The notes beneath the pieces are model-generated. The model made no database searches. It was not told the DNA's origin and saw only the letters and a program-made list of their open reading frames with translations. A stretch of 56,938 nucleotides of DNA, the filler included, from Catajapyx aquilonaris (taxonomy: Eukaryota): the NCBI GenBank assembly GCA_000934665.2. It is 3 parts of 3 records of this genome, joined end to end, with 100 filler letters (N's around TTAATTAATTAA, not from the genome) between each part and the next. Parts side by side here need not be neighbours in the genome. Positions count along the whole stretch, not along the records: positions 38,015 to 56,938 come from JYFJ02006579.1; 2 more parts are not named here. The stretch is one strand, 5' to 3'. This document shows positions 7,775 through 56,938 of this stretch, piece by piece. The position numbers and the translations under genes were made by a program. Each line of letters opens with the position of its first letter. The first letter of the stretch is position 1.

Positions 7775-9583
7775 TCACAGGTAGGCTTCCTGGATGACGG
7801 AGCATCCCCTGTACAAGGAAAGAAAGGAATATATTATAAGCCGACTGTTGCTGTAAAAGAACATACTCCGAGTCGAGTCGGTAATGCTCATTTGTGTAAC
7901 TCACTTTGAATCCCTGGACACTTCGTAATACTTGTCCAGCGACTGTCCCTCAGACAGGGCATGAACAAATGCTTTATCGTGGGTGATGATTATAAGCTGG
8001 AAAGTCTTCCTCAGCCTGTGCCTCTGCACCAGTCTTCGCAATGCCTCTGCCAAGCTGGTCACATTTTGCTTGTCCAGGTTGGTAGTGGGTTCGTCCAAAG
8101 CAAGGATGCCGCACCTGGTGCTGAAGGCTTCAGCAAGGGCAATGCGAACAAGGAGGGAGGCAAGGACACGTTGGCCGGCTGAGCAACGGCCACGCATATC
8201 CATTTCAGTCTTATTCTTCACCATCACCAGACGGTAACTGTATGCGCGACGTTTACCAGTGGTTGCTGGAAATTCATGCAGAGAAGGGTCAGTACATATG
8301 GCTGACAAACTTGAAAGCAAAACATTTATTGCTGCACTCACTGGTCTTTGGAGCATCTTCATTCTCACAGGCAACCCTAATCATCTCAATGTCATTCCCC
8401 CGGTAAACAAGGCACCAGAGTTCATGCAGTACTTCGTTGATGACAGCCATTTGCTGCTCATGGTACTTCAAGATGGAAGCCTCAAGTGCGTCACGGAAAT
8501 TCTTCACATCAACTGCACCCATTTTCAGGGTCTGAAAGGGAAAGGAAACCACATGAACCCCCTCTAAAATAAATTCTTGCATCCAACGTTGGAATGGACA
8601 TTGAAACCAATCTCCACTACCTGACAACACGCTGCACAATGAAAATGACAGTTACACCTCTCACCTTGAGATAAACCATGGCCTTGTAATAGTTTCCTTC
8701 CGCATTCTTCAAATTGTCCTGCTGGAGTTCTCTCTCGACCTCTTTGACAGTCTTCTCAAGTTCTCCCTGACGACCTTTTGTTTCGTGCAGCTGAATCAGA
8801 AACATTACAACAATGATATAGTAACAATCCTCTTATTGCGTAAGTGACAATCAGCCGTAAAGGGGAGGTGTAGATGGCCGAGATGGTAACGTCTCGGCTT
8901 GCTGAGTGAAAGGCCCCAGGTTCGATCCCCGCCTGGGGAACTTTCCTTTCACCTGCGTCAGGCTCTAACCTGCACCTTGGAGGTGTCTGGCAACCTAACC
9001 TCCTGGGGGACAGCACATGACCCATAGCTACGACATTGCACCTTGCACCCATGTTCCCTCCCCAAAAATCCCTATAATATAATTCATACACCGTTATCAG
9101 CCTATCGGCTCTTTAGGGGGAAGTTTTTGTTTTGCCTGGAACTCTTTGCTTTCATTTTACTGCGCTTTTTGGGATAGGATAGGGACGGAAGGAAGCGGCT
9201 GTGGCCTATTAATTGAAGGGGTCGGTGCAATACTGCCCTAACCCACCAAATGACACAAATTGAGTTTCGCGCACTTCCATATACTACACTCAAATATCTA
9301 ATAAAGTACACTGAGATTGTCCAGTTTCTGCCATTTGTCGGTGAGAAATCAAACAATGTTTTTATTGCTCCAAGGTTATGAATGCCTTTTCTGCAGCAAA
9401 ACCGCCCTAACCCTCCGTCTTCAAATATTGCAGCGCGCAGGATGCAGCTGCGAGCAGCTGTGTCTCACGAGTTGGGCTTAAATAGTGATCTTTTGCCTGA
9501 TGACACCGATGTGGATGAGAGTACCTAAGATTCAGAGTTCGATCCTGATAATGATGAAGTGCACAGTAGTAGTCCATTGCAGC

Positions 9584-9660
<77 letters not shown>

Positions 9661-35640: not shown

Positions 35641-36277
35641 GTACGTATTGAATGAAATGTCTCATCTTACAAAAAGTTCTAGTGCCTATTGCCATGGTTT
35701 CTTTTCTGAACAGTGCCATTTCCCATCCAGGAGAGTACATGAGTCTATCAGTGATCAATGGTTCAATTTTGCCATCAGATGGTTTAAAGGGTGCTATGAA
35801 TTTATATTAGAAAGTACCAACAAATGGGGCAATCCTGGACACATGGAGTAATGCTGAACAAAAAGGGGAAAACTTCGTGTGACTTTTGGACTATAACAGA
35901 CCTCGATTATAACACTTTTTTCTGCGATCCCTTGAAGTCTGTTATATTCGGATTCAACTGTAATAATGTCATTAATCTGATAAAAGGACATATTCAACCT
36001 TTTCCTAATTTTACAGGAGAGCCAAAAGAAACTTGCAGACCACTATACAAATACGTAGGATGGCCTTTTGATTTTCCATTATAATTCTGATGCCACTTGT
36101 CCCATGTGCTCGTCGTTTTGTCAGAATGTGACCCAACACTATGGTGCTGGCAGAGGCCATAATCCGATTTTAGCAAAAATGTCGAATTCGTCCTTTTGTC
36201 AAATTAATGACGATATGTTGCTGTCTATTAACTCTAGAAAGTGCATCAGGATTGGCCTCTTTGATGATATGACAATA

Positions 36278-38014: not shown

Positions 38015-38195
38015 GAGGAGGGATTATTCTCTTCATTGGAGAAATGCTATTTTGGAAATATATACAGCAACACCGACAGCATCCGTAGGTGAATCCTTGG
38101 AAACGAGAGCAAGATAAAATCACTGTCCATACTGTCAGTTGGAAAATTTATAACATTCTAACATTCGCCTAAATGTCCCGGCAAAAGGTCCTTGA
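38015..38195 (+). pseudogene. 3' end of ionotropic receptor copy A
   Basis: Aligns with 43177-43362 (GGIILFIGEML). Relative to copy B it has an ~8-bp deletion and a CGA>TGA change. The flank 38195-39180 parallels 43363-44100. Confidence 0.7.
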
Positions 38196-39714
38196 TACTA
38201 ATCGCATCTCAAATGTCCTATAGCAATAATTTTGCACTTTGGAGGTAGCAATAAAAAATAATATCTGTACCATACATCACACCACTCCGTGACCACTCCG
38301 CTTGTCCTACTGCACATTATTGTAATTATTACGCTGAATAAGTTTGGGGCTGTCCAACTGCTGCACTGGTCCGCTAATCATGTAATACGATGTCCTGGAA
38401 TATCTTCCAAGGAAATGAAAGTCCCAGATGATCACAAAACATAATATTGTGTGACCAATAAACAACTTTCAATTCGATACTGCATTTCATTGTTTTAGTT
38501 GAATTATCCAATATACTGTACGTATTTTCAACTGACTTTTAAAGCTCATTTACTATACAGGATTGCACTTGTTGCCTTTTTGAAGTCTGCTGGGAGCGCG
38601 CATACACTGCTATCTTTCGTATTCCGGACGAGGATGGGACGGAAACAACGTCAACTATATCTGTGGCAGTGTTCCCTCATTGGACAGTATGTCACCAAAT
38701 TACGCATTACTTATTTACCCTATACAGGATTGTACTTGTCATTTTAATATTGACCATGTCACCTTTTTGAAGCGGGCTGGGATCGTGCATACATTGTTAT
38801 GTTTTGTATTCCTCTGACTACCCTATTTTGAAAATTTTGCGCAAACCTTTCCAAATAATAGGTTAGGTTATCTTAGGTTAGGTTGTTACAGCATACCCCT
38901 TCCTAAATCCAAAAAATCAATCTTTTCATTCTTGCCTTTGCGACATAGCCAAGCTGCCCCCAGCCACCACTCACCCTGCCGCCTCCCGCCCACCAGTAAG
39001 AGTTACTATTTCCCAAAAATTAATGGTGTTTGTGAGAGTGTATATTACACTATTTTCTGCAACATAGAGAGGGGAAAGCCACTTACACAACCCTCATCTG
39101 ACTTACACAGTACTTATGTCAAGGAAAATTGTTGTTCAAACATCCGGAAATCTGGGTGCCCTCATTTCATATTTTGACAGAAATGGCAGTTTCAAAAAAA
39201 TTTCCTGGATCGACCAATATGTAATTAATCATTGAACCACGTGACAATTCATTTGGACATCCATACGCGACAATAAAATTTAAATTGGGATCTCTTCCAA
39301 CTTAATGCGGTTTAACTTTTTAATTGGCCATTGGCATAACTCATAAGTATTTCCTATTACCTAGGTGGAGTTACTTAATCACGCTGTCTCATAAGAGTAG
39401 TAACATGAGGTATGAATTTTTAAAGCAAAGGCATGTGTGAAATTTTGATACTAATTGAGGTGACCACATTTTTATATCTGGCTAATATCGAAATTCGCCT
39501 CTCTAAATTTTGCGGAAATCTCAAGAAAGCATTCCAGGCTTCATTTTTAAGCCAAATTCAAACTTTTTTAAAAACGGTCGATTTTTGAAAATAATCAACT
39601 CAAAAATTTGGCCGCTATACCTTTAATTCTAAATTTTGATATTTCACGAACATAATTTCTACCGTCAGAAAAGGTGTTAAAATAACTTTCCATTCCAGTA
39701 ACCACATTTTGAAT

Positions 39715-40437
39715 ATCTTAAAATATTTTTTTCTCAGAAATCGTTATTTTAAAAAAATTGCGCTTAAAATGAACCCTACATTGTTTAATTGACATATCCG
39801 CAAAAAAACGAGAGTAGTCTTGTGAAATTTGCTAACTATAAAAACCATATCTTACAAATGTTGCCTCCGCCGTCCACCCTCAGTTGGAGGCCCATTACTG
39901 TCAGGAATTATGCTGGTTACAAATCAAAATTTCGAATTCATTTTCATTTCATTTTAAGCACAATTCAATTTCTTTTCATGTCGATTTTTGAGTAAATGTG
40001 AAATCAAAATTTTGGACGCCATCTTTAATTCGAAATTTGGTTTCTTACAAACATAAGTTCGGTGGTCTAAAAGTGTGTTAAAATATCGCTCACCACAGCA
40101 TGAATATGATTTCGTATTTGTAACAATCTTTTGACAATTATACGTATTATGGCACTCCAACTGAGGGCGGACGGAGGCAACATATGTAAAAATGTTTTAA
40201 ATTTCACAAGACTACTCTCGTTTTTTTGCGAAAATGTCAATTAAACACTGTAGGCTTCATTTTAAAGGCAATTAAATTTTTTTAAATGCCGATTTCTGAG
40301 GAAAAAAGGTGTTAAGATAGCGCCCTAAATCATTGATCACATTTTGGATATGTTACACTGTTACGAAGTTATGTCCCTACAACTGATAACTGACGGAGGC
40401 AAAATTCGCAAAAAGATACGTACTTTCGCACCCTGTA
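39715..40437. mobile_element. Decayed Tc1/mariner-type element with an internal long inverted repeat
   Basis: Arms ~39715-39895 and ~40152-40318 are reverse complements (CGCAAAAAAACGAGAGTAGTCTTGTGAAATT / AATTTCACAAGACTACTCTCGTTTTTTTGCG). One CACCCTG-TA terminus at ~40437. Confidence 0.6.
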
Positions 40438-40586
40438 GTTATACAACCACGCGTCGCAGGGTCAAACAAAACGACGCCCTTGCTCACACCCATAGGTATT
40501 ACAACACACTATATGTTTTGGTCCCAACCGGAAAAGATTTGTCGGGGAGGGGGGTCCAGTTGACGTGGAATGCCTCATATGTATAA

Positions 40587-40665
40587 CCCTCCTGAGACCT
40601 GATGTCCAATATATATATATTTTTTTGCTGATGACCAATATATTGGACATCAGGTCTGAAGAGGA
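40587..40665. repeat. ~80-bp hairpin, possibly a minimal piggyBac-like MITE
   Basis: CCTCCTGAGACCTGATGTCCAATATAT / ATATATTGGACATCAGGTCTGAAGAGG inverted arms, with TAACCCTC at the left end. Confidence 0.55.
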
Positions 40666-40870
40666 TACTATATACCATATAATTATATATTGCACAAAGT
40701 AGTCCTCTTAACATACGGTACTCGTTCCTTTCGCAATATGTAAAATTATCGCACTTGCCACTTTAATTGGCTCTCCCATACAGTATTTTAGTCGTGAGGG
40801 AGTTTCCCATTCACACTGTCTTCTTTAGAACTTGGGACGAGGGTATAGGACGAAATCAATGTCAATCATA

Positions 40871-41783
40871 CAGGGTGATCCAACTCTATGGCACCAGTAG
40901 TTACTTGAAAAATCGCGCAAGCTGCTTGTTTATAAGCAGGTCGTTGCTAAGAGATGCTTTCTGGCTTTCTGGAGAATCGGGAATAGCACCTGCTGATATT
41001 AGGTCCAATGCCCATGTAACAATATTAATGAGGGAAAAAGGGGTCATCCGTGGGAAACAGGCTTGTTCTGGTGTTCGCTGGAGGGTTTCACATGAGGTCA
41101 CTAGCTGCCAAACCAGAGGGCTAACCCGTCGGAACTGGACAGACCCGGGTGTGTCAATAAATAGGCCTTCTGGTCTGTTCATTGTTGGCCGCAGTTGGCG
41201 CAACCGAGGCAGGTCAACAGGCAGCGTTGTTTAGTTACCAGTCTTAGCACCTGCTGATATTAGGTCCAATGCCCATGCGTGTACCAATTAATGAGAGAAT
41301 GCCCAATGCAGACTGTACTGTTAGAACCCTAGAAGCCCTTGGACGGCCCTCGAACAGGCCCCCTGAGTAAGGCATGTCCTGGTCCTGACTCTACAAGAAC
41401 TATTTATTTACTGGTAACTAAACAACGCTGCCTGTTGACCTGTCTCGGTTGCGCCAACTGCGGCCAACAATGAACAGACCGGCAGAAGGCCTATTTATTG
41501 ACACACCCGGGTCTGTCCAGTTCCGACGGATTAGCCCTCTGGTTTGGCAGCTAGTGACCTCATGTGAAACCCTCCAGCGAACACCAGAACAGGCCTGTTT
41601 CCCACGGATGACCCTTTTTCCCTCGTTAATTGTTACATGGGCATTGGACCTAATAACAGCAGGTGCTATTCCCGATTCTCCAGAAAGTATCTCTTATTGA
41701 TCTCTTAGCAACGACCTGCTTATAAACAAGCAGCTTGCTGATTTTTCCAATAACTGTTGGTGCCATAGAGTTGGATCACCCTG
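40871..41783. mobile_element. Foldback Tc1/mariner-type MITE
   Basis: TA-CAGGGTGATCCAACTCTATGGCACCA...TGGTGCCATAGAGTTGGATCACCCTG-TA. Arms of ~370 bp give near-identical spurious ORFs on opposite strands (40901-41203 vs 41449-41700). Confidence 0.9.
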
Positions 41784-42320
41784 TATATCATTCTGTAGCA
41801 GTGAACACGATCCCGTAGTAGGAAGACGCTATCTTGATATACGTAAGTGGGGCGTTTATCTTCATCGTACAGGTCAGCAGTAAATAAACTGAAATATTCA
41901 TCCAAACGTGTTCATACGCGACTGGAATGCCAGCAGGGAGTCACAAAAAGCCAACTGAAAATACATTGCCCAAACTATTTCGTCAATAGCAGCCCAGCGT
42001 TGATGGACATCGAACTGTGACATTTTATGAAGTCTATTGCATCATTTAATATTCAGAAGACATTAAGTCAAATGGTACTTTTCCTTTATATGCATGATTT
42101 CTCATACTGTCTTTGCCAATCACCATGTGAAATCCGTACCATATTTAACAGCATGCCTGGAAAATAGTTTTACGTGTAGTTGCAAATGATTCAGCAGCAA
42201 GGTCAAGGAATACGTTAAGTGAATATTCCAACCAAATTTAGCTCTCGCCAAAAAATGTGGTCCGCATTATCAATATAAACTGAAGTGGAATCAATAGGGA
42301 TGGTCACTTTTGGATTGGCC

Positions 42321-43362
42321 ATGGTGGGGGTAGCAGCGTGTCTCTTGGCTCTGGCCGCAGTCGCTTCTGGTCAAGTCCGTTATAACAGGCAGTTTCGTCC
42401 TTTTTGGATTGTTAAAATTGCAGAAATCGTACAAAAACCCTTTTCTAAGTACACATCCCCCAGAAAATATTATGCTGTATTCTTTGCGATACATGTTTCT
42501 AACCCTGATTGAGGAAAACCCCAACAAAGTACCTGAAGGAGACTCTCCCCGATTGTTCATCTCCTTCTGGTGGATTTATTCCCTGGTCATAATCTGTGGA
42601 TACGAAGCCCTGTATTTCGGATTCTTAGCATCGCCACAGCAGGAAGATTTGCCTAATTCCTATCAAGATCTCGGCAATCGACGTGACTGGAAGTAGGGAA
42701 CTCTGGGACCAGCAAAACCGTATTTCTCTAATATTTTCATTGACAATGACCTTGATTATTTCCAACCCATTGATGAGCATATGAGTGACGAGGACGACCT
42801 CAGCATATGTGTTAGTAAGGAAATAGCGACAAACTTTGCGTGCATAGGTCCAAGTGACTTTTTGCTTGCTTTTGGGGCTCAATATGTAGACAAGGCCGGG
42901 AAAATTCCATTAGCTCTGGCTCCAGATGCTGATATGTTATTTTACGGTGGATATATTTTTGACAAGCACAGTCTGTGGGAACCCATAATGGACAAAATGT
43001 CGTATTACTACGTCAGTTCTGGCATGATGGCCAAAGACGACGAGTACTTGCATTACACTCTTCTTCGATTGGGACTTAGGGATGCAAGAAAAACTGACAG
43101 AATGTACGAGCTGTCGATGGCTTTGAATTTTGATCAGTTGAGAGGAATAGTATATTTTCTCTTCATTTTTTGCTGGGGAGGAGGGATTATTCTCTTCATT
43201 GGAGAAATGCTATATTGGAAATATATACACTTATACAGCATCTCAGACAGCATCCATGGGCGAACCCTGGGAAACGAGAGCAAGAGAGAATCACTGCCCA
43301 TACTGTCAGTTGTAAAATTTAGCTCACATTCGCCTTTAAATGTCTCGGCAAAAGATCATTGA
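42321..43362 (+). pseudogene. Intronless divergent ionotropic receptor (IR) copy B, internally deleted, with a premature stop
   Basis: Signal peptide MVGVAACLLALAAVASGQV is joined out of frame at ~42378 to the membrane region. It has M3-like SPRLFISFWWIYSLVIICGYEALYFGFLASP..P.S..DL, an in-frame TAG at 42694-42696, an S2-like region, and the last TM LNFDQLRGIVYFLFIFCWGGGIILFIGE. Confidence 0.75.
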
Positions 43363-46012
43363 TACAAATCGCTTCTCAAATGTTCGATAGCAATAATATT
43401 GCACTTTCCAGGTAGCAATAAAAATAATATCTATCCCATATATCACACAACTCCATTTGTCCTACTGATCATTTAATTGCGCTGAATTAGTTTGGGGCTG
43501 TCCCGCTGCTACACTGATCCGCTTATCATCGTAAAATGCAATGTACAGTAGCCTACTGCAATATCCTCCTAGGAAATAAAATTCCCAGATGATCAGAAAA
43601 CATATTGTGTGACCAATAAACAACTTTCAATCAGCTACTGCATTTCATTGTTTTAGTTGTATTATCCAATATATTTTCAGCTGTATTTTTAAAGTCCATT
43701 TACTATACATGATTGTACTTGTCATTTTAATTGACCATGTCTGCTGGGAGCGTGTATACATTGTTGTTTTGTATACCGCTAACAGCTCTATTTTGCAAAT
43801 TAGGCGCAAATTTTACAAATATAAACTTCCTAATATGGACATAAGCAATAATAAATAATATGCGTCTGTCATATTAGCAGAGGCTATAATAAGACACTGG
43901 GAGTTTAAAATGCATAACCTACAACAAACATATCAAAAATTGATGGTGTTTGTGATAGTGTATTAATTTTACACGATTTTCTGCAACTTAGAGAGGGGAA
44001 AACCACTACACAGCCATCATCTGACATGCTTATGTGAAGGAAAATTGTTGTTCAAACATCCGGCAATCTGGTTGCCCTCATTTCATATTTTGACAGAAAT
44101 AACTTAGCCTAAAGATAGAGTTATTACAGCGCAAGTTAAACTTTACACTTTTGTCAACAAAAAGTGCGTCGGCGTGATTTACTGTATTCAGTTTGTCGAA
44201 AGTGGTTCATCCCATCTCTCAAGTCTCATGGAATTTGTGAAGTTTGTGATCGCCAATTCTGAATTTCGCGGACACACATTAACCAATGGAAATCGATAGA
44301 TCAGTTGCAATGTGGAAGCCACTCGGTTAGTAGTAAGTTAGTTGTTGATGTTTTCCCTTTGACCTTTCCTCTCTGTGGCCACTTTCATATTATGACATCA
44401 TCTGGGTCGGAGGAGGAAGAATTATTGGTGACCTCCCTGGTGGAAGATGTCCGTCGTTCAAGCGAACCCCAACGACATTCCCCGAGGTGATCCATCCCGA
44501 GGCCTACAACTTGCATGCATTATTTGTAAGCATCGTATAACATAAGCAATATCAACCATATCTGCGCCAGTGAATGTGTCCCTTCAGTGGACATCAAGCC
44601 ATGAGGATGAAAGTGGGTCGCTTCTATTTGCAGCATACCATCCTGTCAACAGTAAATAAAGTGAAATATTCATCCAATCCTGGTCAATTCTGAGTGACCT
44701 GCTTCTATTATCTGGACACAGGCATCAAAATGATTTTCATTCCGCATATGTTAATTTCATAACAGAATTTCTGACAATAATACTGGAATAGAAAAGTGGT
44801 ATTTCAGGGCGGCTCATTTATGTTGCATGTAAAGTTGCATAAAAGAACCGCCTTCTTCCAAAACTTAAAAAATACTTGAAAAGGTTCTTTGGAGATAATT
44901 GACCCGAATTAACTGCATCCAAAAAAATTTAATGATTTGCTTTGAACCAATGAGATCAGAAACCCCATAAGTCCGTAGAACTAAATTTCCCAGGGGAGAC
45001 ATAAATCGACCTATAAGTTCACCATACTGCTGTGGCATAGGCCTACATTGGATTTTTTTTACATAACACACATGCAAAGGCAATACTTTCTCCGTCTTGG
45101 TTTTAAAAGATTAAGTGACAATTGGTGTCTGTAGAATTTTGTTGAAGGTCCTGGACATATGGGGTTTCTGTTCTGGTCGCTTCTTTTACCTTTCACATTG
45201 TATGTAAAATATTGTACTCATCATCCAAAATGGCTGTCATTTAGATGTGTGGGAATGCGACCCTTATACATTTTTAGGATCTTCTCCATATAGATCATAA
45301 TTATGTAAACAAAGAAAAATATTCATCCAAACGTGGACATAACGCTATTTTTATATAATTATTGTTTTTATTTATTTACAAAGTCTTGTGATAGGAAAAT
45401 AGCGAAATTGTAAAGAATATGATAGAGAGAGTCAGGTTCGTTTCGATTACTCTATGTGCAGTCGTTTTCATTATCAAGCGTGATGAACGACCCATTACAG
45501 GAAGTCTGGGTGAGAGATGGCTAAGATTTGCCACTAATCTGGTTATATTAACATGGGTCAGTAACGACAGGTAACGTACAGGGTCTACATAACGCTATTG
45601 TAATGCCAGCAAGGAAGGAAACTCAAAAGTAGACTGACAATAAATCTCCAAAACTACAGTACAATGTCAAAAGCAGCACGTAAGTTTGATTTGTAACTGT
45701 TACATTTTAATGTTCCTGGCATCATTTAATATTCTAAAGATTTTCGTCTAATTTTGCAATCCGTCAATATACAATATAATTTCTTATTATGTCATTGCCT
45801 ATTACCATGTCACCTCGGGGCCTTACTCTACGCTCTACATGCAGTGTACCTGAAGAGTAATTTGCTCCTTAAATGGCTTGGCAAAATGTTTACGAAGTAG
45901 GGAAATGTATACCAACCAAATTTCGCTGTCACCAAATGTGGTTCGCATTATCTACTGTAATATGTATAAACAGAAGTGGAATCAATAGCGATGGATCAGT
46001 TTGAGCTTGGCC

Positions 46013-46081
46013 ATGGTGGGGGTAGCAGTTTCTCTCTGGGCGCTGGTCGCCATCGCTTCTGGACAAGTCCACATGTCATAT
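46013..46081 (+). pseudogene. 5' end of ionotropic receptor copy C, truncated by a LINE insertion
   Basis: MVGVAVSLWALVAIASGQV and the upstream flank (TATAAA-C.GAAGTGGAATCAATAG) parallel 42270-42378. Confidence 0.7.
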
Positions 46082-46495
46082 CCATATGTTGAAAAACGAT
46101 TTAGAGTTGAATGCGGGAAAGACGAAAATCATGGTATTTAGGAATGGAGGAAAAAGGTCCAAAAGGGACGGGTGGTTTTGGGAGGTTTCCTTCGGTCCGG
46201 CGAGTAGAGGGGACATTCCCTGGCGGGGTCGATGAGGTGCAAGGGTGGTGCCATACACGTCGGCGTGGCCAGGGCGTCCGGAGTAGTGGCTGGTGGCGGG
46301 GAGGNTATTGCATAGTGTAATATTTAAATTAAATATTGAGTGTCTGTCGTCTGAGGTTGGCAGGGGTGGGGGGGGGGGGAGCTGGGTTGTTTTTAGGCTT
46401 ATTTTCACAAGTTTTAATTATTAGTTCATATGTTGGGTTAGCTTGCGTCTCCCTTCATCGCTGAGACGCTGACTACTCCTCATAGGGAAATGTCG

Positions 46496-46533
<38 letters not shown>
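46082..46533 (+). mobile_element. Truncated LINE fragment (RT remnant, 3' UTR, (GTT)n tail)
   Basis: Encodes DLELNAGKTKIMVFRNGG, the LxxNxxKTxxMxF motif at the end of non-LTR RT domains. Its 3' end is shared with 18784-18889 and 52943-53045. Confidence 0.75.
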
Positions 46534-46534
<1 letters not shown>

Positions 46535-48511
46535 ACAGTATCTCAGTTGTATGACAATATTACAACATCGACTATCGTGAAACAGAGCACACGAGACACA
46601 TGGGGAATAGGCATTTATTATGACATACAGGAATAGAAGGAAATATCATTCCCCATAATAAACGCCTTGTCTGGAACACTTGACGTCACTGTGACGTCAC
46701 TCTGACGTAATGGCTCGTCCCCAGAGTGCTGTCACCTACGCCACCTACCAGTCTTGGTGGAAAGCGCTTAGGAACTGTCGTGACTGTGACTGCTGCCATC
46801 TTCCGCCACCTTCCGCACTAAATAATTTTACCGTCCTCCCAACGAGATAGAATCATGTAGAGGCCGTAAAGGTCACGTGATCTATGGCGTCCATGCCACT
46901 TCACGAATCCGACACTAATCGCAATATGTTCCCATTCCAGCTTGGACTTCTTTTTCTTCTTTCTCCAGTTCCTCCAGACTGGCTCTCTCCAGCTGGAGTT
47001 TCTTTCTCTGTCCAGTGACCGTTGATCTTCCGCATCTGCATGATCACTAGTCCCGTCTTGATCAACATCTGCTTGATCATCAGGCCCATCAAGATCAGCT
47101 TCTGCTTGGGCATCAGCCTCCGCCTCTAGCTGCTTCTGCCTCAGCTTCCAGAAGTCGTCCAATGATGTACAGACCCCTTCTGCGGCATCAAACTCTGTTG
47201 TAGTTCGCATTCCCTGCACCTGGGCCTCTTCTCGCCCCTTGACTCGACGGTCCATCGTTACTTCACCATCTTCCCAGCACCGGATGTCATTCATCCCCCT
47301 GACTGCTTTGTCCCGCAGGTTGCCTCTATATTGGAGACAACTCTTGGCACGCATCTGACTCGGGCTGCTGGCTTCTTCGTCGACCAGTTCTTCCATCGCT
47401 GGCTTCAGGTACCGCAGACCTCCTGGTTCACTGCAGCGCCCTATGACACGTCTCCCCATGCTCTTCCCCAGCCCTCCATCGTCATGACGCAACGTCCTGG
47501 TACTCTTCAGCTTCGTCTCTCACCCGCTCCTGGCCCCTCAACTCATCCTTCATCCCCGGGATGTTCCCTGTTGAGCACTCACACTTAGCTGAGATTACTT
47601 CGTTGCTCTCAGGACCCACCAACAGCAAGCTCTTGGCATCTTCGACCTCTGAACCTTCCTTTCTCAGCCTCCAGGTGTCCAAACCGTCATCCAGACCACC
47701 AGCCACTGGCTCCAAGATCTGCAGCACCCCTGGTCCATTGCAGCATCCCTTTGCACTACTTTCCATGACCCCTTCCAGCTCCCTGGCGATATGGCGCAAT
47801 CCCATTACGCCCTCTGTCTGGTCCTTTTCGGTCTTCACCCTCTTCATCTCAGCCTGGTGGGCACAGTCCCCTAGGATTGTCCCAGCATCTTCTTGCCCCC
47901 CGACTGGATGGTACAGCGACTCGGCACTCTCTCTCCGGCACCGGTCTTCCTTCTTCCGCTCAACATCTTTGTTCCTCAGGCCACTTCTGCCACTCTCGGA
48001 ACACTTCTGCACTGGCCTCCGAGTGTCCTCGCCATCAACCGGGTCATCCGTCCCTGGCTTCAGGATCTGCACGCTTCCTGGCACGCTGCAGTATCTCCTG
48101 GCACTTCGATCTGTGCCTTCCACCAGCTCCCTGACGGTGGGGCGCCACCCCATGGTGCCCTCTACCTGGTCTTCTTCGGTCCTCACACCATTTCGGCCCA
48201 GCCAGTTGTCCGAACCCGGGTTGACCTCTGCCACCCCGCTGGTACTCATGTCATCGCCTGCTGTTGGAACTCTTATCTCCAACCACACGGGATCTCTCAC
48301 CTCAGCACTTTTCTTCAAACGCCCCCGGGCACCCTCGCCGTCAACCGTACTGACCGTCGCTGGCCTCTGGATCTGCAGGCCACCCCCTGGTTCACTGCAG
48401 CCTCCCCTGGCACATCTCCCTGTGCCTTCATCCAGCCTCACGACGTCATGGTGCACCATCACAGCACCACTTGTCCGGTCCTCTTCAGCTCTCACGTGCC
48501 TCTGGCCTAAA

Positions 48512-51500
48512 TAGCCCAGGCATAATAGGTTTTTACCTTGAAATAAATAAGGTAGTTTTGATTTTTGGCACAAATGTACCTTGGTACCATAGGAGCTACC
48601 TCCCAAAAGTCCCCGCCTCTGAGGCGTCGGCGTCATAGTTTTTTTGAGCAAAAAGTGCGTAAGTCACAAAATCACAGAAATACCTGCCTTACGCTCAAAA
48701 TATCCGTCGCAATGCCCTCCAATGGTGCCAAAATGGTCAGGGAGGAACTGGGTGTGAATTAAAAATATCATAATTGACATGAAGTGAACTTATAAATAAA
48801 TAAATCCCATTTATACTCGCAGTACATATATCGAAAGATTACACTTTACGTACTGCTCGAAAACCGTCATTGATGTGGACAAAATGGTAGGAACCAAAGT
48901 TGGAGTGCACACCTTCAGCTTTCGAACGGTATGTCGATGATCTCTCTGCGATTAACGGTTACGTATATCTTCGTCGAAACGTGAACCGATGTCGCAGCGC
49001 ACGCATATAGTGCCGCTCTACTCGGCCGAGGCGGACGCCACTGTACCGGCGCGGCGCAAGTCCCCCGATCCCGCCGCGCCGGTGAGTTGCTGTTAGTTGT
49101 GCGTTGGGATTCTTGTCTCAGGCATTAGAGCTACGAATATAAATGACGTATTTGTACATTATTGCCGGGTATCTCCTTTTAGAATAAATAAGCCGATAAG
49201 TCCTATCCGATATGACATAACAAGTTACTTTACCATTTGCAAAAATCAGAAAAACTGGCGCCGAATAATCGGTCATCCTCTTCTTCATCATCACATCCAT
49301 CCAATGTAACATTTAAACAGAAAAATCCTCGGCAATTCGCGCACATCAAACTGCACTCCAGTCCAGCACGTGCACAGTCACACCGGTTGCCGCAAGTGTT
49401 CTTGCAATTGCGGGACACCAGGAAGGAGGAAGAGTGGTTGTAATAGGCACCAGCGCACCACCAACAATTCTCCATCCCCAATCCTGAGGGTCCAAGTAAT
49501 GACCCATCCATTCCTGAACTTGGATGTACACGCGAAGGGAATGCTGCTCACATGCAGCAGATGTTGGCTTCAGCCATGTTGACAGAAAACCCAAGGCTGC
49601 TAAGGACCTGTATCAACTGTTTGGAAGCATAACGGCGGTACACGTAGTACACTCCAAGAGCAAGTAGAACAGGAGGGACAAATGAACGTGGCCTATATGG
49701 TGATACGAGTGCTTGTCCAATTGCAGTTCGTTTCCTTACAATGCCTTCTGACTGGGGATTACGGGAGGAGATGACTTTGTCCAGAAAAACCTTCAGAGTG
49801 GCAGGCAAAATGCTGTCTTCAGTAACACTAGACTGATCTGCAGCTGGATATTCGTCACACTTATAAACCATTCGGCGAATGTCCTCTCGAATGATTTTTG
49901 CTGCAGTCTCCACAATTAAGGCGCTCCTCAGTGAACGACTTTTTCCTATTAGAGTACCACATTTCTTGGAGGAGCTGGTCAGCTGTTCCCTTAAAATTCA
50001 CAATACTCGACTGCCCGGGAGTAGGCTATCTGTGATAACAATCGCATGGCCATAGTAAACTTTCAGTTTCTCCTTCAAGTACCTAGGACTGTAAGACAGA
50101 GTAGAAGATATCAATGTCGCAGAGTATGACTCCATACGCTTCACCAGGTCGTCAAGCAAGAATTGACATTCATCGTTGTTCTCCAAGTAATCCCTCAGCC
50201 TCTCGAACGCTTCTTTCTTGCCCTCATCTTCTCTTCTACCTCGCCCTGAAGCGGAGGTAGTGCTGGAGATAAACCGCCGGCGGCACTCGGTGTGGTATTT
50301 GGCTTCTGCGGCGACAAGATCTTGGACACTGTCAACACCAGCCTGCACGATTCTCCCCCAGTCATCTTGTCTCTCCTGATACCTAAGCCTCACCGGACTC
50401 TTGAAGATCAGAGTCCTTACTTCATAAATAACCTTCCTGTACTTCACAGCCTCCTTTGTCTCCTTCTATTCAGAGGCTTCCTCCCCGCAGAACAGGCAGT
50501 GTTCCTTAAAGTTGAAAGTAGGAAGGGAAGAACGCAAAACTTTGCTGCTTTCCAGACCCATCGATGTACTCGACGTACTTGGATCACATACTCGTATCTT
50601 CCTATCTTTCAGTATGGACGTTTTCCTGGTGTAGTCTTTACTGCATGAAACAGCATGGACAACAACGCTACGTTTTGAGCCGATAACCTCCGCTTTGCCA
50701 TCCATTCGCTCCTGGCTAGCAGCAACCAGCCCACGCAGGCCTCTGGACACAACCACTGTTTCTTCACCATTCTCCAAGTCACACTCACATATGAAGCATT
50801 TTCCTGAATCCATGCTCCCAGGTGCTAGAGCAGTTGCTCAAGTGCACGTGTGACTTGTCCAGTGGTGGGCACGCTAACCGTGTTTTAGTTCCACTAAAAT
50901 CAGCAAACCATGGGCGGTGCTAAATCGCTAATGATAAACAGGTACAATGATTATATGGGGATTTCTACAAAATTTCTAGCGATTCAGCGATGTCCATGGT
51001 TTTAGTGAGCAAGTTAGCTGTTATCGAAAGCAGAGCTGGGCAAGCTAACCGAAACTTTTAGCTCAGCTAACTTCCGCTAACAGCGAATTCGGTTAGTAAA
51101 CCATGGGCGGCGCTTAATTGCTAATGATAAACAGCTAGAATGATTAGGGAGGTTTCCACTAACCTTTCTAGCTGTTAAGAATTAACGAATTGGTGATGTC
51201 CAGGGTTTTTCTGAGCAAGTTAGCTGTTATCGAAAGTTAGCTGTGCTCACCTCTGATCGAAAGTTAGCTGTGCCCAGCTGCCCACCACTGAACTTTTGTC
51301 TCATGGAGGCCGCCATTGCGGACAGGTTTGCGGGCGCGGGAACGGGCTAGTGGCAACAGGCACTGCGCGTGCGCTGCGACATCGGTTCACGTTTCGACGA
51401 AAATATCCGTAACCGTTAATCGCAGAGAGATCATCGACATACCGTTCGAAAGCTGAAGGTGTGCACTCCAACTTTGGTTCCTACCATTTTGTCCACATCA

Positions 51501-51869
51501 ATGACGGTTTTCGAGCAGTACGTAAAGTGTAATCTTTCGATATATGTACTGCGAGTATAAATGGGATTTATTTATTTATAAGTTCACTTCATGTCAATTA
51601 TGATATTTTTAATTCACACCCAGTTCCTCCCTGACCATTTTGGCACCATTGGAGGGCATTGCGACGGATATTTTGAGCGTAAGGCAGGTATTTCTGTGAT
51701 TTTGTGACTTACGCACTTTTTGCTCAAAAAAACTATGACGCCGACGCCTCAGAGGCGGGGACTTTTGGGAGGTAGCTCCTATGGTACCAAGGTACATTTG
51801 TGCCAAAAATCAAAACTACCTTATTTATTTCAAGGTTTGCCTTAAAATTTGCTTATAATGCCTGGGCTG
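48512..51869 (-). mobile_element. Academ (AcademX-type) DNA transposon, internally deleted
   Basis: Termini TAGCCCAGGCAT...ATGCCTGGGCTG (YR..YR), 3-bp TSD AAA, and near-perfect ~470-bp inner TIRs (48535-49004 / 51367-51836). ORF remnants at 50813-49230 include FNFKEHCLFCG, DLVAAEAKYHTEC, IIREDIR, PTSAACEQHSLRVYIQVQEW..P..WGW and a Cys8 finger CKNTCGNRCDCARAGLECSLMCANCRG. Confidence 0.8.
50860..51290. mobile_element. hAT-type MITE nested in the Academ element
   Basis: TIRs CAGTGGTGGGCA / TGCCCACCACTG, internal duplicated AAGTTAGCTGTTATCGAAAG blocks, and an imperfect TSD. Confidence 0.65.
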
Positions 51870-52942
51870 AAAGTGCCCTTCCCAGAGATGATCCCAGTCG
51901 TGCCACTGATCCCGGCTGCGGCACCACGTGACCCCTTCATCGGCAGGCCCCCTGCTGGCTCTCCGCAAACCCTCTCAGGCCCACCTGCCCTCGACGGCAC
52001 AGTCGCAAGATACGGCTCACACTGGGGTCTCTTGCCCTCCGACGCACCGGTACTGGTACTGCCGTCATCACCTGGCAACCTCACCTGATCACTCATCCTT
52101 GGCGCCTCCAGGAGTGTTTGGAGTGACAACGATGCACCCCCTTGGCCGTCGCATGGCAACGTCGATTGACCCATTGTTGGCTCCTTCCGAATCGCCGATC
52201 CGGAAGGGGGAGAAAAGAGGGGCCCCGGATGTGACGTGGCAGTACCTACGTCACTGTTTACTTTTTGGACGCATTACGTCACTGTTTACTTTTTGGACGC
52301 ATTGGCGCTGACGGTTGCGCGGACGAAGCTGGAAGTTCTAGAGCTCATGTTAGTGATGGGAAAAAACGTTATTTTCGCGTAACGATTACAAGGTTACCCG
52401 TTATTTTAATATATACGTTATAAATATGCGTTAATAGTTATTTTCTTATTTAAACGTGTTATAAACTAATATAAATAACTGCTGTCGATATTAGCTATTT
52501 ATGTAATTACCAAGCGCTGGGTAATTTTTCATGGCTCCAGCCGGTTGTAATCGAATCTATAAAGAAAAACAGTTAATAATAATTACTATTTTGACATGTT
52601 AATCATTATTAACATTCAAATTAACGTTCAAATCTCCAACAACCTCGTCCTATACTATACAGTATATTACTCTACTCTTGTGGGTCACATAAAATTAAGT
52701 ACGCCTATTCATAATTGATAAGTGGATAGTGTGGGGGGAAAATATATAACATAACTTCGCTCATCCGGAAATACCAGATGATAGACTGGCGTTCTAAAAC
52801 ATACAATATGCTGTTTCGGATTTCAATAATAGTGCGGGAAAAAAACCTGCATTGAAACATTTAGTGTCATCTACAAGTAGAAAGCAAAATAGACAATGAT
52901 AGACCATTCAGACCTTCCAAAGTCATATGCGACCAAAAATTA

Positions 52943-53045
52943 TCAGCGATGAAGGGAGACGCAACTTATGAACCAATAAAACTCATGAGAATAAACCTAA
53001 AACAACCTGTCCCACCCCCCACCCCTGCCCACCTCAGACATCACC
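52943..53045 (-). mobile_element. LINE 3' UTR fragment (same family as 46082-46533)
   Basis: TCAGCGATGAAGGGAGACGCAA...CCTAAAACAACC...CCCCTGCCCACCTCAGAC is the reverse complement of 46350-46465. Confidence 0.7.
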
Positions 53046-53320
53046 TTATCCTCAGACTTATTTACCTATTTACCCATTAATTACATTAGTAACATTCACG
53101 ATTCACCTATTTTAAAGGGAGTGCTCATCAAGCTCTCGAATCACGTGCTCGAATTGCCGCCGCCTGGTGACGTCATTAACACAGTCCAAAAAGTCATCCG
53201 TGACGTAGGTACTGCTACGTCATAAGCGGGGCCGCCATTTTCGCCCCCTTCTTTTTTGACCCTTCCGAATTGAACGGTGATGTGAAGTGGGCGCAAAGAG
53301 TTCTGCTATATTATATATAC

Positions 53321-53554
53321 ACCTAGAGGAGGTACTCGGCCTGCAATGTGAGGCAGGCAACAATGCAAGCAACAATATGACCTCCAACAAGATGGCGGAC
53401 GCCTGACATTATTGAACTAATTGTCGCCCAGATGTCATTATTGGTTGTTGTCCCAGTTGCTAGACAACTGTTAGAACAACAATATGACCTCCAACAAGAT
53501 GGCGGCTGCCTCAGCCTGTCTAATGGAAAAGGATAGGGAGTACCTCCTCTAGGT
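53321..53554. mobile_element. Small MITE in a TA-rich target
   Basis: 17-bp TIR ACCTAGAGGAGGTACTC / GAGTACCTCCTCTAGGT. The internal direct repeat CAATATGACCTCCAACAAGATGGCGG occurs twice. Confidence 0.7.
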
Positions 53555-53565
53555 ATTATATTATA

Positions 53566-54246
53566 CTAGCGCACCCGTAGCCAAAATTTGGCAAACATGC
53601 AATGAGGAAGACAATAATGGGAATGACAAAACAGAATGAGAGGGCTCGCGGAGTGACAACTAAGAAAATATCGTATAGATGGTCGTAAGACGCGGTTGAA
53701 AAATTTAGTGGCGTTGGTGGAATCAATGGACATACTGTACAGTACACTTCCTGAATCGGATATGAGAAAAGTTTTAATAAAACCTCGCGATATAGTCATA
53801 TTATACAACATTCTGTGTAAACACACCGTTGTTGGAGAGCAATGTTCCATGTTGAGCAGTGGGAGTGCAGTGAACACTTTGACATGACTAATTCCGGAGA
53901 TATAATATACCTTGCAGTGTTCCGGACGCAAAAAAAAATTAGACAATTATTATAGGGAGAATTGGCGGTTAAACTGGGATTTCTGTCAGTTTGAACGGAG
54001 AGGAGGAGGAGGGGGAGGAGGAGGAGGTGGCCACCAACAGAAGGCGGAATATACCTTGCAGTGTTCCGGACGCAAAAAAAATTAGACAATTATTATAGGG
54101 AGAATTGGCGGTTAAACTGGGATTTCTGTCAGTTTGAACGGAGAGGAGGAGGAGGGGGAGGAGGAGGAGGTGGCCACCAACAGAAGGCGGAATATACCTT
54201 GCAGTGTTCCGGACGCAAAAAAAATTAGACAATTATTATAGGGAGA
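53566..54246 (-). mobile_element. Possible non-autonomous Helitron with a 143-bp tandem repeat (53904-54246, ~2.4 units)
   Basis: The minus-strand 3' end is GCCAAATTTTGGC hairpin...CGCTAG|T. The minus-strand 5' end TCTCCCTATAATAAT recurs in each tandem unit. The tandem repeat is certain, and the Helitron call is inferred. Confidence 0.5.
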
Positions 54247-54868
54247 ATAATAGCAGAATTCTTTGTGCGGGCGTCGATTGTGTTCCAAAGCCATGTGCGG
54301 TGGAGTAGACCCCGTGAGGTGCAACTCCGCCCCCATTTCCATTGGGAGCAAGCCTTGCCAACATAGCCTTCCTCACCTCCAAACACCGCACTCTCGCCTC
54401 CAGCTCCTCGCGGCTCCGACGTTGGGCCTCTGCGACCATCCGCATCTTCTCCAACTCGTCTCTCATTTCCTGCCGCCTCTTGTCCCGGATCCGACAAGCA
54501 GCCTCCACAGCCATCTGCATCTGCACGAACTCCTCCTTCAGTTCCTTCCTGTGCTTCGTCTCCGTCCTGGAAGCTCTTCCATCGGGCAGGGGCCCTCCTC
54601 GCAATACTGGGGAATCGCCATCTCTGCCCCACTTGCTTCCCTGCCACCTACCCGGAGTTCTGTCCTCTCCCGTCTCCATCCTGTGCCGCAGTCCCTCAAC
54701 ATATATCCTCCAGTCCACGGATCCACTGCCCTCCTCGGCTTTGGAGCACCTTTCTTCCCCCAAGATGGCTCGCAGCTGCTGAAGGAATGCCATCCTCCTC
54801 TGCGACGTCCAATCCGGCCTTGCGGTTCCGATATCCAACACTTCTGACACCAATTTGTAGTGCCTCAC
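54236..54868 (-). CDS. Hypothetical 210-aa ORF with a predicted coiled coil, possibly transposon-borne
   Basis: GC-rich open frame with an E/R/K-rich helical segment (KELKEEFVQMQMAVE...EELEARVRCLE). No family recognised, the start codon is uncertain, and the 3' end runs into repeats. Confidence 0.35.
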   Translation of the reverse strand: MRHYKLVSEVLDIGTARPDWTSQRRMAFLQQLRAILGEERCSKAEEGSGSVDWRIYVEGLRHRMETGEDRTPGRWQGSKWGRDGDSPVLRGGPLPDGRASRTETKHRKELKEEFVQMQMAVEAACRIRDKRRQEMRDELEKMRMVAEAQRRSREELEARVRCLEVRKAMLARLAPNGNGGGVAPHGVYSTAHGFGTQSTPAQRILLLFSL

Positions 54869-55027
54869 GATGAGACGTCAGAGACACCACAAAATCATCC
54901 TGCGAAACACATCGGGGAAAGGGTAAAGCCACCACTGTGGACTTCTATTCAGGACAATAGGTACATCACATCCGTCCAGGAGGACGGTAGAACAAGATCT
55001 AACATTCCATTCAAACATCAACAACAT

Positions 55028-55079
55028 CAGTGTCCTGGCAACCAGGGCAACAGACAACAACCTGGTAGCCAGGACACTA
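55028..55079. mobile_element. 52-bp hairpin mini-MITE with Academ-like termini
   Basis: CAGTGTCCTGGCAACCAGG - 14 nt - CCTGGTAGCCAGGACACTA, flanked by CAT on both sides (55025-55027, 55080-55082). Termini are CA..TA (YR..YR). Confidence 0.65.

Positions 55080-55080
<1 letters not shown>

Positions 55081-55162
<82 letters not shown>
55081..55162. repeat. (ATT)n microsatellite
   Basis: About 27 perfect units. Confidence 0.98.
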
Positions 55163-55165
<3 letters not shown>

Positions 55166-56398
55166 CCGCTTATTGCATTTCATTTTTTACTTACATTATC
55201 TCAATTGATTATTATTTTAACCACAATTACTCTACTAGATTGCACTTGTCATTTTAATTGACCATCCCACCTTCTTGAAGTCTGCTTGGGAGAGCATGCA
55301 GCGGTCATGAATATATTGTTATGTTTCATATTCCGGGCGAAGATGGGACGGAAACAGCATCAGCCAGATCAATGCTTCGTATATTTTTTTTGCAGCAAAT
55401 TTTGATTTCGAATGGAATGAAATAGCTCCTCTTTGATAGAGATGTGTTGCAACAGCCTATTATGGATGGTGCCTTCCAATTATTGCACGAGGAAGCCCAA
55501 ATATGTTCCATCTCTTGTACAGAACACAGAAGTGAGGCACTGATCAGACGCGACTAAAATGGTAAAGGAAATCGATTTTTTTTTCCATTTCGCAGTTGAC
55601 CCAAATGATGCCTATAATGAGCCAATTTCAGAGACCCAAATAAACGCTGCGGTGATGGCAAGGAAACATACAAAAACCGTATAATTATTTGGATTTCTTC
55701 ATTGAATGTTCTGTATAGTATAGTATAGTATAGTATAGTATAGTATTTAGTATCCCCATAATAATAGCCTTGTCTAGAACGCCACAAGGGAACGCCAGAT
55801 GTTGCTGCCTGAAGAAGTAGTGCCGTGAAGAAAAAGGTGGCAGCACTCCCTTGGCGGTCTTTGGCGGCGGGCAAGGGAGTGCTGCCACCTTTTGGTCAGT
55901 ACGGCACTAATTCTTCAGGCCGCCGCTTTCCCTTCCCGCCATAAGTCCTAACCGCCACCTATTTCCTTTCCCGCCAATACAGGTCTGCCAACTGATTCAA
56001 TCTGAGCCTCAGAATATTCAGAAAGCTGTCATATACGCTGCTACTTCCAGCCCCACTTTCTAACTATGCCGCCATCTTGGATCCGGATCGAGCAACTTAT
56101 TATCATTTTCAGCGGATAGCTGAGCTTAGAGTAAACCATTGCGACTTATTTGGCGGCGTAGCATGAACCTCCCGGAGCAAGAAAACAAGATATCAGCGGT
56201 GGGATCAGCATGGGATTGGAGGTTGGCAAAGCCACAACATAACGTCCGTTGGCCTCCGCCGCCACAAGACGGACAGTACTGTAAATGTTGCGGATACGAA
56301 ACCCACAATAATCGCCCAGCTCCGCTTCCTCTCCGCATTACCTAAAATATCCTGCAGGGCGGCGAACCCTGCCTGGCGGGGCCACAACAGATGACAGT

Positions 56399-56659
56399 GG
56401 AGATAATGGATACCCCGTGATAAGCCTCCTTCAGCTTTTTAGGGGATCATCTTTTAATTGACCGACTTTAATCATTGCCTTTGCTGTGATGGATTTTGAT
56501 TGTGAGAGGAAACGGGAGAACCCCCGAGAAAACCAACGCGAACACGGAGAGAACCCATCGAAACTATATCCACGTAAGCATAATATACTCTGTCCGATAC
56601 GGAGATCGAACTCGGGACCTTAGAGGTGAAAGGCTGCGGCGCTAACCACTGCGCCCAAT
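56399..56659 (-). mobile_element. tRNA-derived SINE (family D)
   Basis: Minus-strand head GGGCGCAGTGGTTAGCG...GAGTTCGATCTC, central GTTTTCTCGGGGGTTCTCCCGTTTCCTCTCAC, and a 13-bp TSD AACAGATGACAGT (56386-56398, 56660-56672). Confidence 0.8.
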
Positions 56660-56938
56660 AACAGATGACAGTATCATAAAGCCATAGAGCATTATTACCT
56701 ACACAAAGGGCAACTCCATCCTTCATGTTGCCCCGTCGCTCAAATATGCCCGTATCAGCTAATATCAGCTATTATTATTAGCCTTAATCATAGCCTGCTG
56801 GATCCGGATCCAAAAGTCTTATACAGTAAAACTTCTAGAAGAGTAGTTAGGATAGGCTAAGTACGGAGCCTCATGGAAAAATTCCGCAGTGGCGCCACCG
56901 TCTATGCGAGTTTAACATGGGAAAGCGCCACTGCGGCC

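Follow-up and report, generated by a model that had tools for sequence, protein, structure and literature searches.

The stretch of DNA analysed here, called the window, is a joined stretch of 56,938 nucleotides from Catajapyx aquilonaris (GCA_000934665.2), in which positions 38,015-56,938 come from JYFJ02006579.1. The locus itself is ordinary: it is a dead retrotransposon copy that lies beneath three later insertions. This copy of a Gypsy element carries three DNA-transposon insertions, has a frameshift near 47497 and lacks its 3' LTR. The nest lies between two parts of another, truncated IR-like gene copy: its start (45583-46070) and its 3' flank (55164-55265). An IR-like gene is adjacent (42334-43362; Lig_chan, E=3.8e-6), in agreement with the initial annotation, which had placed the locus at an IR locus among transposons.

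Table 1 Features of the nested locus, in window positions.
Feature	Position	Strand	Basis
5' LTR of the non-autonomous Gypsy element, 226 bp, TG...CA	54856..55081	-	90% identity to both LTRs of sister copy L030
Primer-binding site (PBS)	54839..54852	-	Common to autonomous Gypsy elements L089 and L106
5' part of the genuine ORF: Gag N-terminus and coiled coil, ATG 54793	54268..54793	-	gag homology, predicted helix
976-bp insertion, inverted ends starting CAC, putative non-autonomous DNA transposon	53292..54267	.	Missing from sister; termini and flanks
30-bp leftover of the element's internal sequence, flanked by two insertions	53262..53291	-	Sister alignment
1069-bp DNA transposon, 9-bp target duplication, subterminal inverted repeats	52193..53261	.	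Ends recur elsewhere
Middle ORF segment with internal ATG 52174	51870..52192	-	Sister alignment, DNA profile map
Academ-type DNA transposon, TTT target duplication, decayed transposase	48512..51869	-	3358 bp, 470-bp inverted arms
3' ORF segment: four ~190-bp repeats, frameshift, acidic stretch, purine-rich WRNWRKKKKK tail	46922..48511	-	Sister alignment
Terminal 275 bp of an unrelated multi-copy repeat family, with 3' TGACGT cluster	46645..46920	-	Genome search
AATAAA, outside the LTR element, past the end that copies of the 3' repeat family have in common	46614..46619	-	Motif position
Start of a further truncated IR-like gene copy	45583..46070	+	68% to 41908-42378

The 5' LTR has at least 41 matches in the genome (40 scored of 113 candidates), and the PBS that follows it is presumably that of tRNA-Leu. 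Both ends of the 1069-bp element were found on other contigs at 91-99%, with different flanks, and from the length of its target duplication we take it to be Mutator-like. The 3358-bp insertion has 37 genome matches. Its name, Academ, is an assumption from its general features, and Pfam gave no match.

The initial annotation had described an intronless repeat-protein gene that starts at ATG 52174, is revealed by removal of the Academ insertion, is bordered by TGACGT clusters and uses the AATAAA as its polyA signal. The insertion can indeed be removed, and the sister copy L030 carries a single TTT at this site, within an open frame. The four diverged repeats exist, at ~48497-48303, 48188-47997, 47842-47649 and 47517-47347 (L030 coordinates mapped to the window via the sister alignment), as do the acidic stretch and the basic tail. 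The TGACGT clusters and the AATAAA are also present, but they are not ends of this element. The 5' cluster is contained in the 1069-bp transposon, and the 3' cluster belongs to the end of another multi-copy family, with at least 41 genome matches (40 scored of 120 candidates). Since similarity within the Gypsy family ends at 46922, the proposed protein's final codons fall outside the element, and so does the AATAAA, a motif with a frequency of 1.4 per kb across the window. Nor does the frame stay open in the window, where the loss of 14 bp of sister sequence near 47497, in repeat 4, leads to a stop at 47482. The 3' ORF segment is cut off before the polypurine tract (PPT) and the 3' LTR.

L030, an uninterrupted copy with defined ends, is 95% identical to the window copy. 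It has two identical direct LTRs (TG...CA), a PBS after the 5' LTR, a PPT before the 3' LTR, a 4-bp target-site duplication (TSD) and one ORF of 821 codons. The full ORF starts at the equivalent of window ATG 54793, ~2.6 kb upstream of ATG 52174, which is internal; the sister ORF runs upstream into the homolog of 54266-54793. The window copy retains only the 5' LTR, its 3' end being lost. Sister copies are ~3 kb elements with the layout LTR-PBS-single ORF-PPT-LTR. A 4-bp TSD is found in other copies too, and the dispersal of copies bearing TSDs of their own implies mobility. The proposal that the gene belongs to a mobile element and was inserted as a unit is borne out, and the frame is almost certainly the internal ORF of a non-autonomous derivative of a Ty3/Gypsy LTR retrotransposon.

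The ORF is an in-frame deletion mosaic composed of a Gag N-terminus, protease remnants, the repeats and the purine-rich tail. The sister ORF matches gag of the autonomous element L106 (tblastn, E=2e-14). This homology stops in the middle ORF segment of the window, at L106 nt ~1009, just short of the capsid, which starts at nt 1025 in the DNA profile map. Capsid and nucleocapsid are missing from the ORF, and neither Pfam nor the DNA profile map against autonomous copies placed reverse transcriptase (RT), RNase H or integrase in it. Pfam finds Retrotrans_gag in L106 gag and not in the sister ORF. The protease (PR) pieces are degenerate and occur in most subfamilies. By Pfam, L089 has PR, RT, RNase H (RH) and integrase (IN), and L106 has RT, RH and IN; judging by the order PR-RT-RH-IN and by homology to both elements, the parents are Ty3/Gypsy. 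The genome holds full-length Gypsy elements with matching PBS and LTR ends, and LTR similarity to candidate helpers is confined to the LTR ends. A known transposon ORF, which the initial annotation had counted against its own proposal, is matched by the N-terminal third.

For the sister ORF, AlphaFold predicted one long helix at residues 71-148 (pLDDT 86-98 in blocks 81-150); the remainder was of low confidence (mean pLDDT 46), with no globular fold, although the alignment held 8 sequences only and low confidence by itself is weak evidence. The sister ORF had no match in Pfam, the protein library, 1.84 billion representatives, the ESM Atlas or, by Foldseek, the PDB. These blanks are weak evidence of novelty, since autonomous L106 gag was also blank in the first protein library, the one on which this control was run.

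Four subfamilies, separated by dS of 0.26-0.51, each have a copy whose frame is unbroken to the 3' LTR. The ORF frame runs for 624-821 codons with no stop; the other sense frames contain 18-43 stops, and shuffled sequences have minima of 13-21. Neutral simulation at 0.1 substitutions per site gave 6.6-8.3 stops, and at most one run in 200 was stop-free. Each of the 15 pairs has at least 91% of its aligned DNA columns in frame. In five of five intact copies the ORF stop is no more than 15 nt from the beginning of the 3' LTR, reached via different terminal frames. When 12 copies were compared, one of ~30 frame-breaking lesions was common to two copies, 18 nt from the ORF end. The frame has very probably stayed open across the diverged subfamilies through selection.

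Selection on the amino acids is a different matter. NG86 dN/dS among pairs is 0.51-1.01, compared with 0.11 for autonomous pol and 0.12 for gag. Maximum-likelihood omega is 0.81-0.85 in the repeats, not different from 1 (2dlnL 2.1 vs omega=1), and 0.58 in the N-terminus, significantly below 1 (2dlnL 17.3), both read with the caution that protein-guided alignment pushes omega downward. Autonomous RT has an omega of 0.016, and autonomous gag/pol dN/dS is 0.02-0.12 overall. The past selection suggested by the initial annotation holds for the openness of the frame across the family and not for the repeats, which are without significant amino-acid constraint. Some protein constraint may remain at the N-terminus, where omega is below 1.

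Translation, rather than the protein, may well be the main target of selection. The element RNA would be transcribed from its own LTR, then packaged and copied by autonomous relatives, and master copies would be selected for translation from the PBS to the 3' LTR. With an early stop, the 3' UTR would be ~2 kb long, which could expose the RNA to 3'-UTR-length-dependent nonsense-mediated decay (NMD); alternatively, such a stop could abolish a need for translation in cis. The bulk of the protein would then be filler, and a weak role may remain for the Gag coiled coil. Against this reading, the frame is unbroken in only 4 of the 11 clean copies with two LTRs, and in none of the four of subfamily E, two of which have identical LTRs. 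Related elements of 1.1-1.2 kb, with near-identical LTRs, also retain repeats without the full frame, so translation is not needed at that size. As a whole, we moderately favour the reading of the locus as a dead, nested copy of a non-autonomous Gypsy element whose family keeps its frame for the sake of translation.

It is unlikely, though worth weighing, that the protein itself matters. The Gag coiled coil would join helper Gag, and would thereby either tether the element's RNA during translation or interfere with the helper; the long disordered tail, basic at its end, would bind RNA or act as a nuclear signal. The constrained N-terminus and the confidently predicted helix speak for this, as does the recurrence of the basic/W tail even in families with a different gag. 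However, at the DNA level that tail is a purine-rich tract with a reading frame that slips between copies, the repeats are indistinguishable from neutral, and the ORF has no capsid domain for assembly. Repeat number (1-4 copies of the ~190-bp unit across subfamilies), protease remnants and terminal frame all vary freely among copies.

The source of the repeat was sought by tblastx and tiled DNA profiles, which placed it nowhere, and in 13 further loci, which gave one non-trivial match (L125). A decayed integrase zinc finger was considered and rejected, as 15-unit protein and DNA profiles had no significant match in any of the four full-length elements L089, L104, L105 and L106. A conserved RNA structure was likewise rejected: the structure conservation index is 0.06 over 15 units, the single-sequence folding z is near 0 in 14 of them, and the weak alifold energy was reached by 3 of 200 column shuffles.

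That the frame is open without selection, the subfamilies being recent chance in-frame deletions of different autonomous parents that have yet to decay, is improbable and already largely refuted. In its favour, most two-LTR copies are broken (7 of 11), and the autonomous parents are diverse and partly assembled only. Divergence inherited from functional parents nevertheless predicts an omega of ~0.1 and a third-position excess, as seen between L089 and L106, whereas codon positions are flat in the subfamilies; the frame was also kept through repeat duplications and many indels, where simulation expects 6-13 stops. The original proposal, in which an undescribed DNA element or an endogenous virus carries a cargo or accessory gene with TGACGT ends and a poly(A) signal of its own, has in its favour the blank Pfam, protein-library, Atlas and PDB searches and the untraced repeat, but is highly improbable and refuted by L030: the LTR, PBS, PPT and TSD anatomy and gag homology mark a deletion derivative of Ty3/Gypsy gag-pro, the motifs are part of other repeats, one blank library is equally blank for autonomous gag, the gene lacks termini of the proposed kind, and a foreign origin is possible for the repeat module only.

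The family seems to offer a natural example of selection that acts on the open frame and little on the protein. If the translation reading is true, a long open frame in a non-autonomous LTR element does not in itself count as evidence for a functional orphan protein, the burden that NMD places on retrotransposon RNA can be measured, and translation-coupled RNA surveillance would shape non-autonomous elements, explaining a class of 'orphan ORFs'. In the open-access literature, we found no paper describing such frame selection for LTR retrotransposons; an earlier description in Repbase-type reports or subscription journals is possible.

With autonomous L106 and L089, the family shares the PBS, LTR termini, PPT region, Gag N-terminus and protease remnants. 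In contrast, those elements code for a capsid, RT, RNase H and integrase, on which purifying selection is strong, and the ~190-bp repeat was not detected in them. The plant TR-GAG elements (PMC4350172) are non-autonomous LTR elements of <4 kb with LTR features, a single Gag-related ORF and no enzymes, which are apparently still mobile. The Catajapyx element likewise has a single ORF in <4 kb. It differs in its animal host and in that TR-GAG encodes a Gag precursor, while here homology stops before the capsid, no Retrotrans_gag or globular fold was found, the zinc knuckle is absent, and what is left of the ORF consists of protease remnants and repeats that evolve almost neutrally. Zebrafish BHIKHARI (Bik-1/2) and chicken ENS-1/ERNI are non-autonomous LTR elements of animals whose single long ORF, for a long time unassigned in Bik-1, has an N-terminal coiled coil (PMC12067270). 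Their ORFs keep a predicted capsid fold and are of retroviral origin (PMC12067270). The Catajapyx ORF is Gypsy-derived. A hidden capsid fold was not found in it by homology, AlphaFold (8-sequence alignment) or Foldseek against the PDB.

Van der Most (1995) and Kim (1993), both cited in PMC8255065, reportedly described coronavirus defective-interfering RNAs that require a long ORF. Such RNAs need a long ORF whose translation, and not its product, is reported to count (PMC8774189). Like them, the Catajapyx element would be a helper-dependent deletion mosaic that retains an open frame; they are RNA viruses studied by experiment, whereas the family consists of integrated retrotransposons read from sequence evolution alone. 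Its evolutionary signature, as far as it can be read, fits a defective-interfering-like genome. Tentatively, these non-autonomous Gypsy lineages, with more than one parental gag, could be regarded as a retrotransposon counterpart of defective-interfering viral RNAs, in which a junk frame of 600-900 codons is kept open to the 3' LTR solely for the RNA to be translated throughout, and a repeat module is shared among the lineages.

A search of the genome with positions 47500-48510 of the window gave 36 matches, one of which, at 96%, is a sister copy, L030. Its two LTRs, identical and about 226 bp long (TG...CA), enclose a primer-binding site (PBS) and a polypurine tract, and its target duplication is 4 bp. 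Its single frame has 845 codons from stop to stop, or 821 from the first ATG. The family belongs to the non-autonomous Ty3/Gypsy LTR retrotransposons. The initial annotation, which saw an orphan gene serving as cargo or accessory gene of an undescribed mobile element or endogenous virus, had proposed a search for uninterrupted copies; L030 is such a copy, its ends defined by the LTRs and the target duplication. Together with a match to autonomous Gag, its features replace the cargo-gene reading.

The alignment with L030 is broken into separate stretches of the window (55081-54266, a 30-bp remnant, 52192-51870 and 48511-46922). It places the start of the window copy at its 5' LTR and makes the ATG at 52174, previously taken as the start, internal. 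The 5' LTR differs from that of L030 by 10%, and the internal regions by only 3-5%. The insertion that the initial annotation had excised from the frame is real, with 37 related matches in the genome; its features suggest an Academ element, and a Pfam search of it gave no match. The analysis likewise confirms the four repeats, the acidic stretch and the lysine run. The frame, which was thought open, is closed by a stop at 47482, because 14 bp of L030 are absent near 47497. Changes between the two copies fall 27/27/23 by codon position, and four of five ORF indels are in frame. Similarity to the family stops at 46922 and the 3' LTR is absent; next comes the terminal part of an unrelated multi-copy repeat, which bears the 3' TGACGT cluster, and past this repeat lies the AATAAA. 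Neither this AATAAA nor the TGACGT clusters belong to the gene as polyA signal or flanks, the 5' cluster being part of a transposon found again elsewhere in the genome with other flanks. The nest, placed initially inside an IR locus, lies within a truncated further copy of an IR-like gene.

Features of the window copy and its surroundings
Feature	Position	Strand	Basis or remarks
5' LTR of window copy	55081-54856	minus	alignment to L030
ORF start of window copy	ATG 54793	minus	alignment to L030
DNA transposon interrupting window copy	53292-54267		CAC-starting inverted ends
Tandem repeat within it	53904-54248		unit 143 bp, about 2.4 copies
DNA transposon interrupting window copy	52193-53261		9-bp duplication; holds 5' TGACGT cluster
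Presumed Academ insertion	48512-51869		470-bp inverted arms, TTT duplication
Foldback/tandem segment within it	50902-51247		possibly nested MITE
IR-like gene units	38015-46070, 55164-55356		at least 3 in tandem, ~5 kb apart; nest disrupts third
Palindromic repeat (~55750-55990)	55804-55923		by eye, similar to subterminal repeats and end motif of family at 46645-46920
Presumed trithorax/KMT2-like large exon, host gene	29851-35655	plus	
Presumed RAD50-like exons, host gene	7901-17100	minus	
Presumed TM9SF-like exon, host gene	665-1135	minus	

A PBS pattern search of the genome gave 33 sites and led to two full-length elements with Gypsy domain order, L089 and L106. The first ~250 residues of the sister ORF match L106 Gag (E=2e-14); by DNA profile tiling the match ends at about L106 nt 1009, and the capsid starts at nt 1025. 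In subfamilies L034, L038, L039 and L099 the Gag part runs in frame into degenerate protease sequence. The ORF arose by deletion from an autonomous element. Protein searches with the ORF gave no match in the libraries searched, which carries little weight, since autonomous gag was also without a match in the one library so checked. The structure check suggested initially yielded one confident AlphaFold helix (residues 71-148, 8-sequence alignment), low confidence elsewhere, and no significant match in the PDB. The ORFs of L034, L038 and L039 have a hydrophobic Met/Val/Leu stretch, apparently built from short tandem DNA units, which the window's subfamily lacks.

The frame is unbroken in four of the 11 clean two-LTR copies (L030, L034, L038 and L039, one per subfamily) and broken in L042, L043, L072, L091, L116, L117 and L118, a count that omits the rearranged L033 pair, partial copies, L099 and L126 (cut at the locus edge) and L036. 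At L033:2996-8037 (G000:C1644), two members lie tail to tail with LTRs apparently swapped, the 5' LTR of each being ~99% identical to the 3' LTR of the other, by inversion, recombination or mis-assembly. The intact frames have no stops and their other sense frames 18-43. Neutral simulation at 0.1-0.17 changes per site predicts 6.6-13 stops, with a stop-free outcome in at most 1/200 runs. All five intact copies, L036 included, end their frame no more than 15 nt from where the 3' LTR starts. Twelve copies were set against intact references (L071, a 13th, could not be aligned) and show roughly 30 frame-breaking lesions in all, of which one is shared, 18 nt from the end. The tally is approximate, as one of the events in the window copy is due to an alignment artefact at an insertion edge and binning can overlook shared events.

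This open frame is accompanied by weak protein constraint. Over six ORFs (15 pairs), dS between subfamilies is 0.26-0.58, NG86 dN/dS is 0.51-1.01, substitutions are almost flat over codon positions, and the frame is kept in at least 91% of aligned DNA columns. In autonomous pol and gag, dN/dS is 0.11 and 0.12 and changes at third positions are strongly in excess; the ML omega of RT is 0.016. For the N-terminus, omega is 0.58 (8 sequences, 163 codons; 2dlnL 17.3 against 1), and for the repeats 0.81-0.85 (10 units, 56 codons, four near-duplicate or most degenerate units excluded; 2dlnL 2.1). Past selection, as initially suggested, has probably kept the frame open; in the repeats, omega does not differ significantly from 1.

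Protein and DNA comparison found no source of the repeat in autonomous elements, and no conserved RNA structure was found in it. The element at L036:2283-5492, non-autonomous and flanked by identical LTRs, has a single frame of 911 codons that comprises a gag core, a zinc knuckle, protease, one copy of the repeat and the remnant of an integrase tail, with no RT; its gag differs from that of the window family, yet the repeat is the same. L044, L045, L047, L049 and L108, TRIM-sized LTR elements of 1.1-1.2 kb with the same PBS, have about 1.5 repeat copies each and no full-length frame.

Judged from sequence, selection for translation through to the 3' end is a plausible mechanism behind the family-level pattern. 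The element would be transcribed from its LTR, then packaged and copied by autonomous relatives; if it had an early stop, an element of 2 kb would be a target of NMD, which a junk frame reaching the LTR would escape. By its title, van der Most 1995 reportedly finds that translation matters rather than the sequence encoded. In Drosophila and other organisms, 3' UTRs longer than about 300 nt trigger EJC-independent NMD, and escape in Rous sarcoma virus requires a stability element (PMC10141005); a long ORF improves replication of some coronavirus defective genomes (PMC8774189). Against the mechanism, the coiled coil shows residual constraint, subfamily E has no intact copy, though two of its copies have identical LTRs, and the short relatives spread without a frame; the latter are compatible with a length threshold, which no test here predicted.

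The locus itself is ordinary. For LTR retrotransposons, the literature searched, which did not extend to Repbase-type sources, held no report of a frame that stays open while its protein is only weakly constrained. The family is without capsid, which excludes it from TR-GAG (PMC4350172) and from BHIKHARI/ERNI-type elements (PMC12067270), as these sources describe them; by analogy, it may work like a defective-interfering genome.
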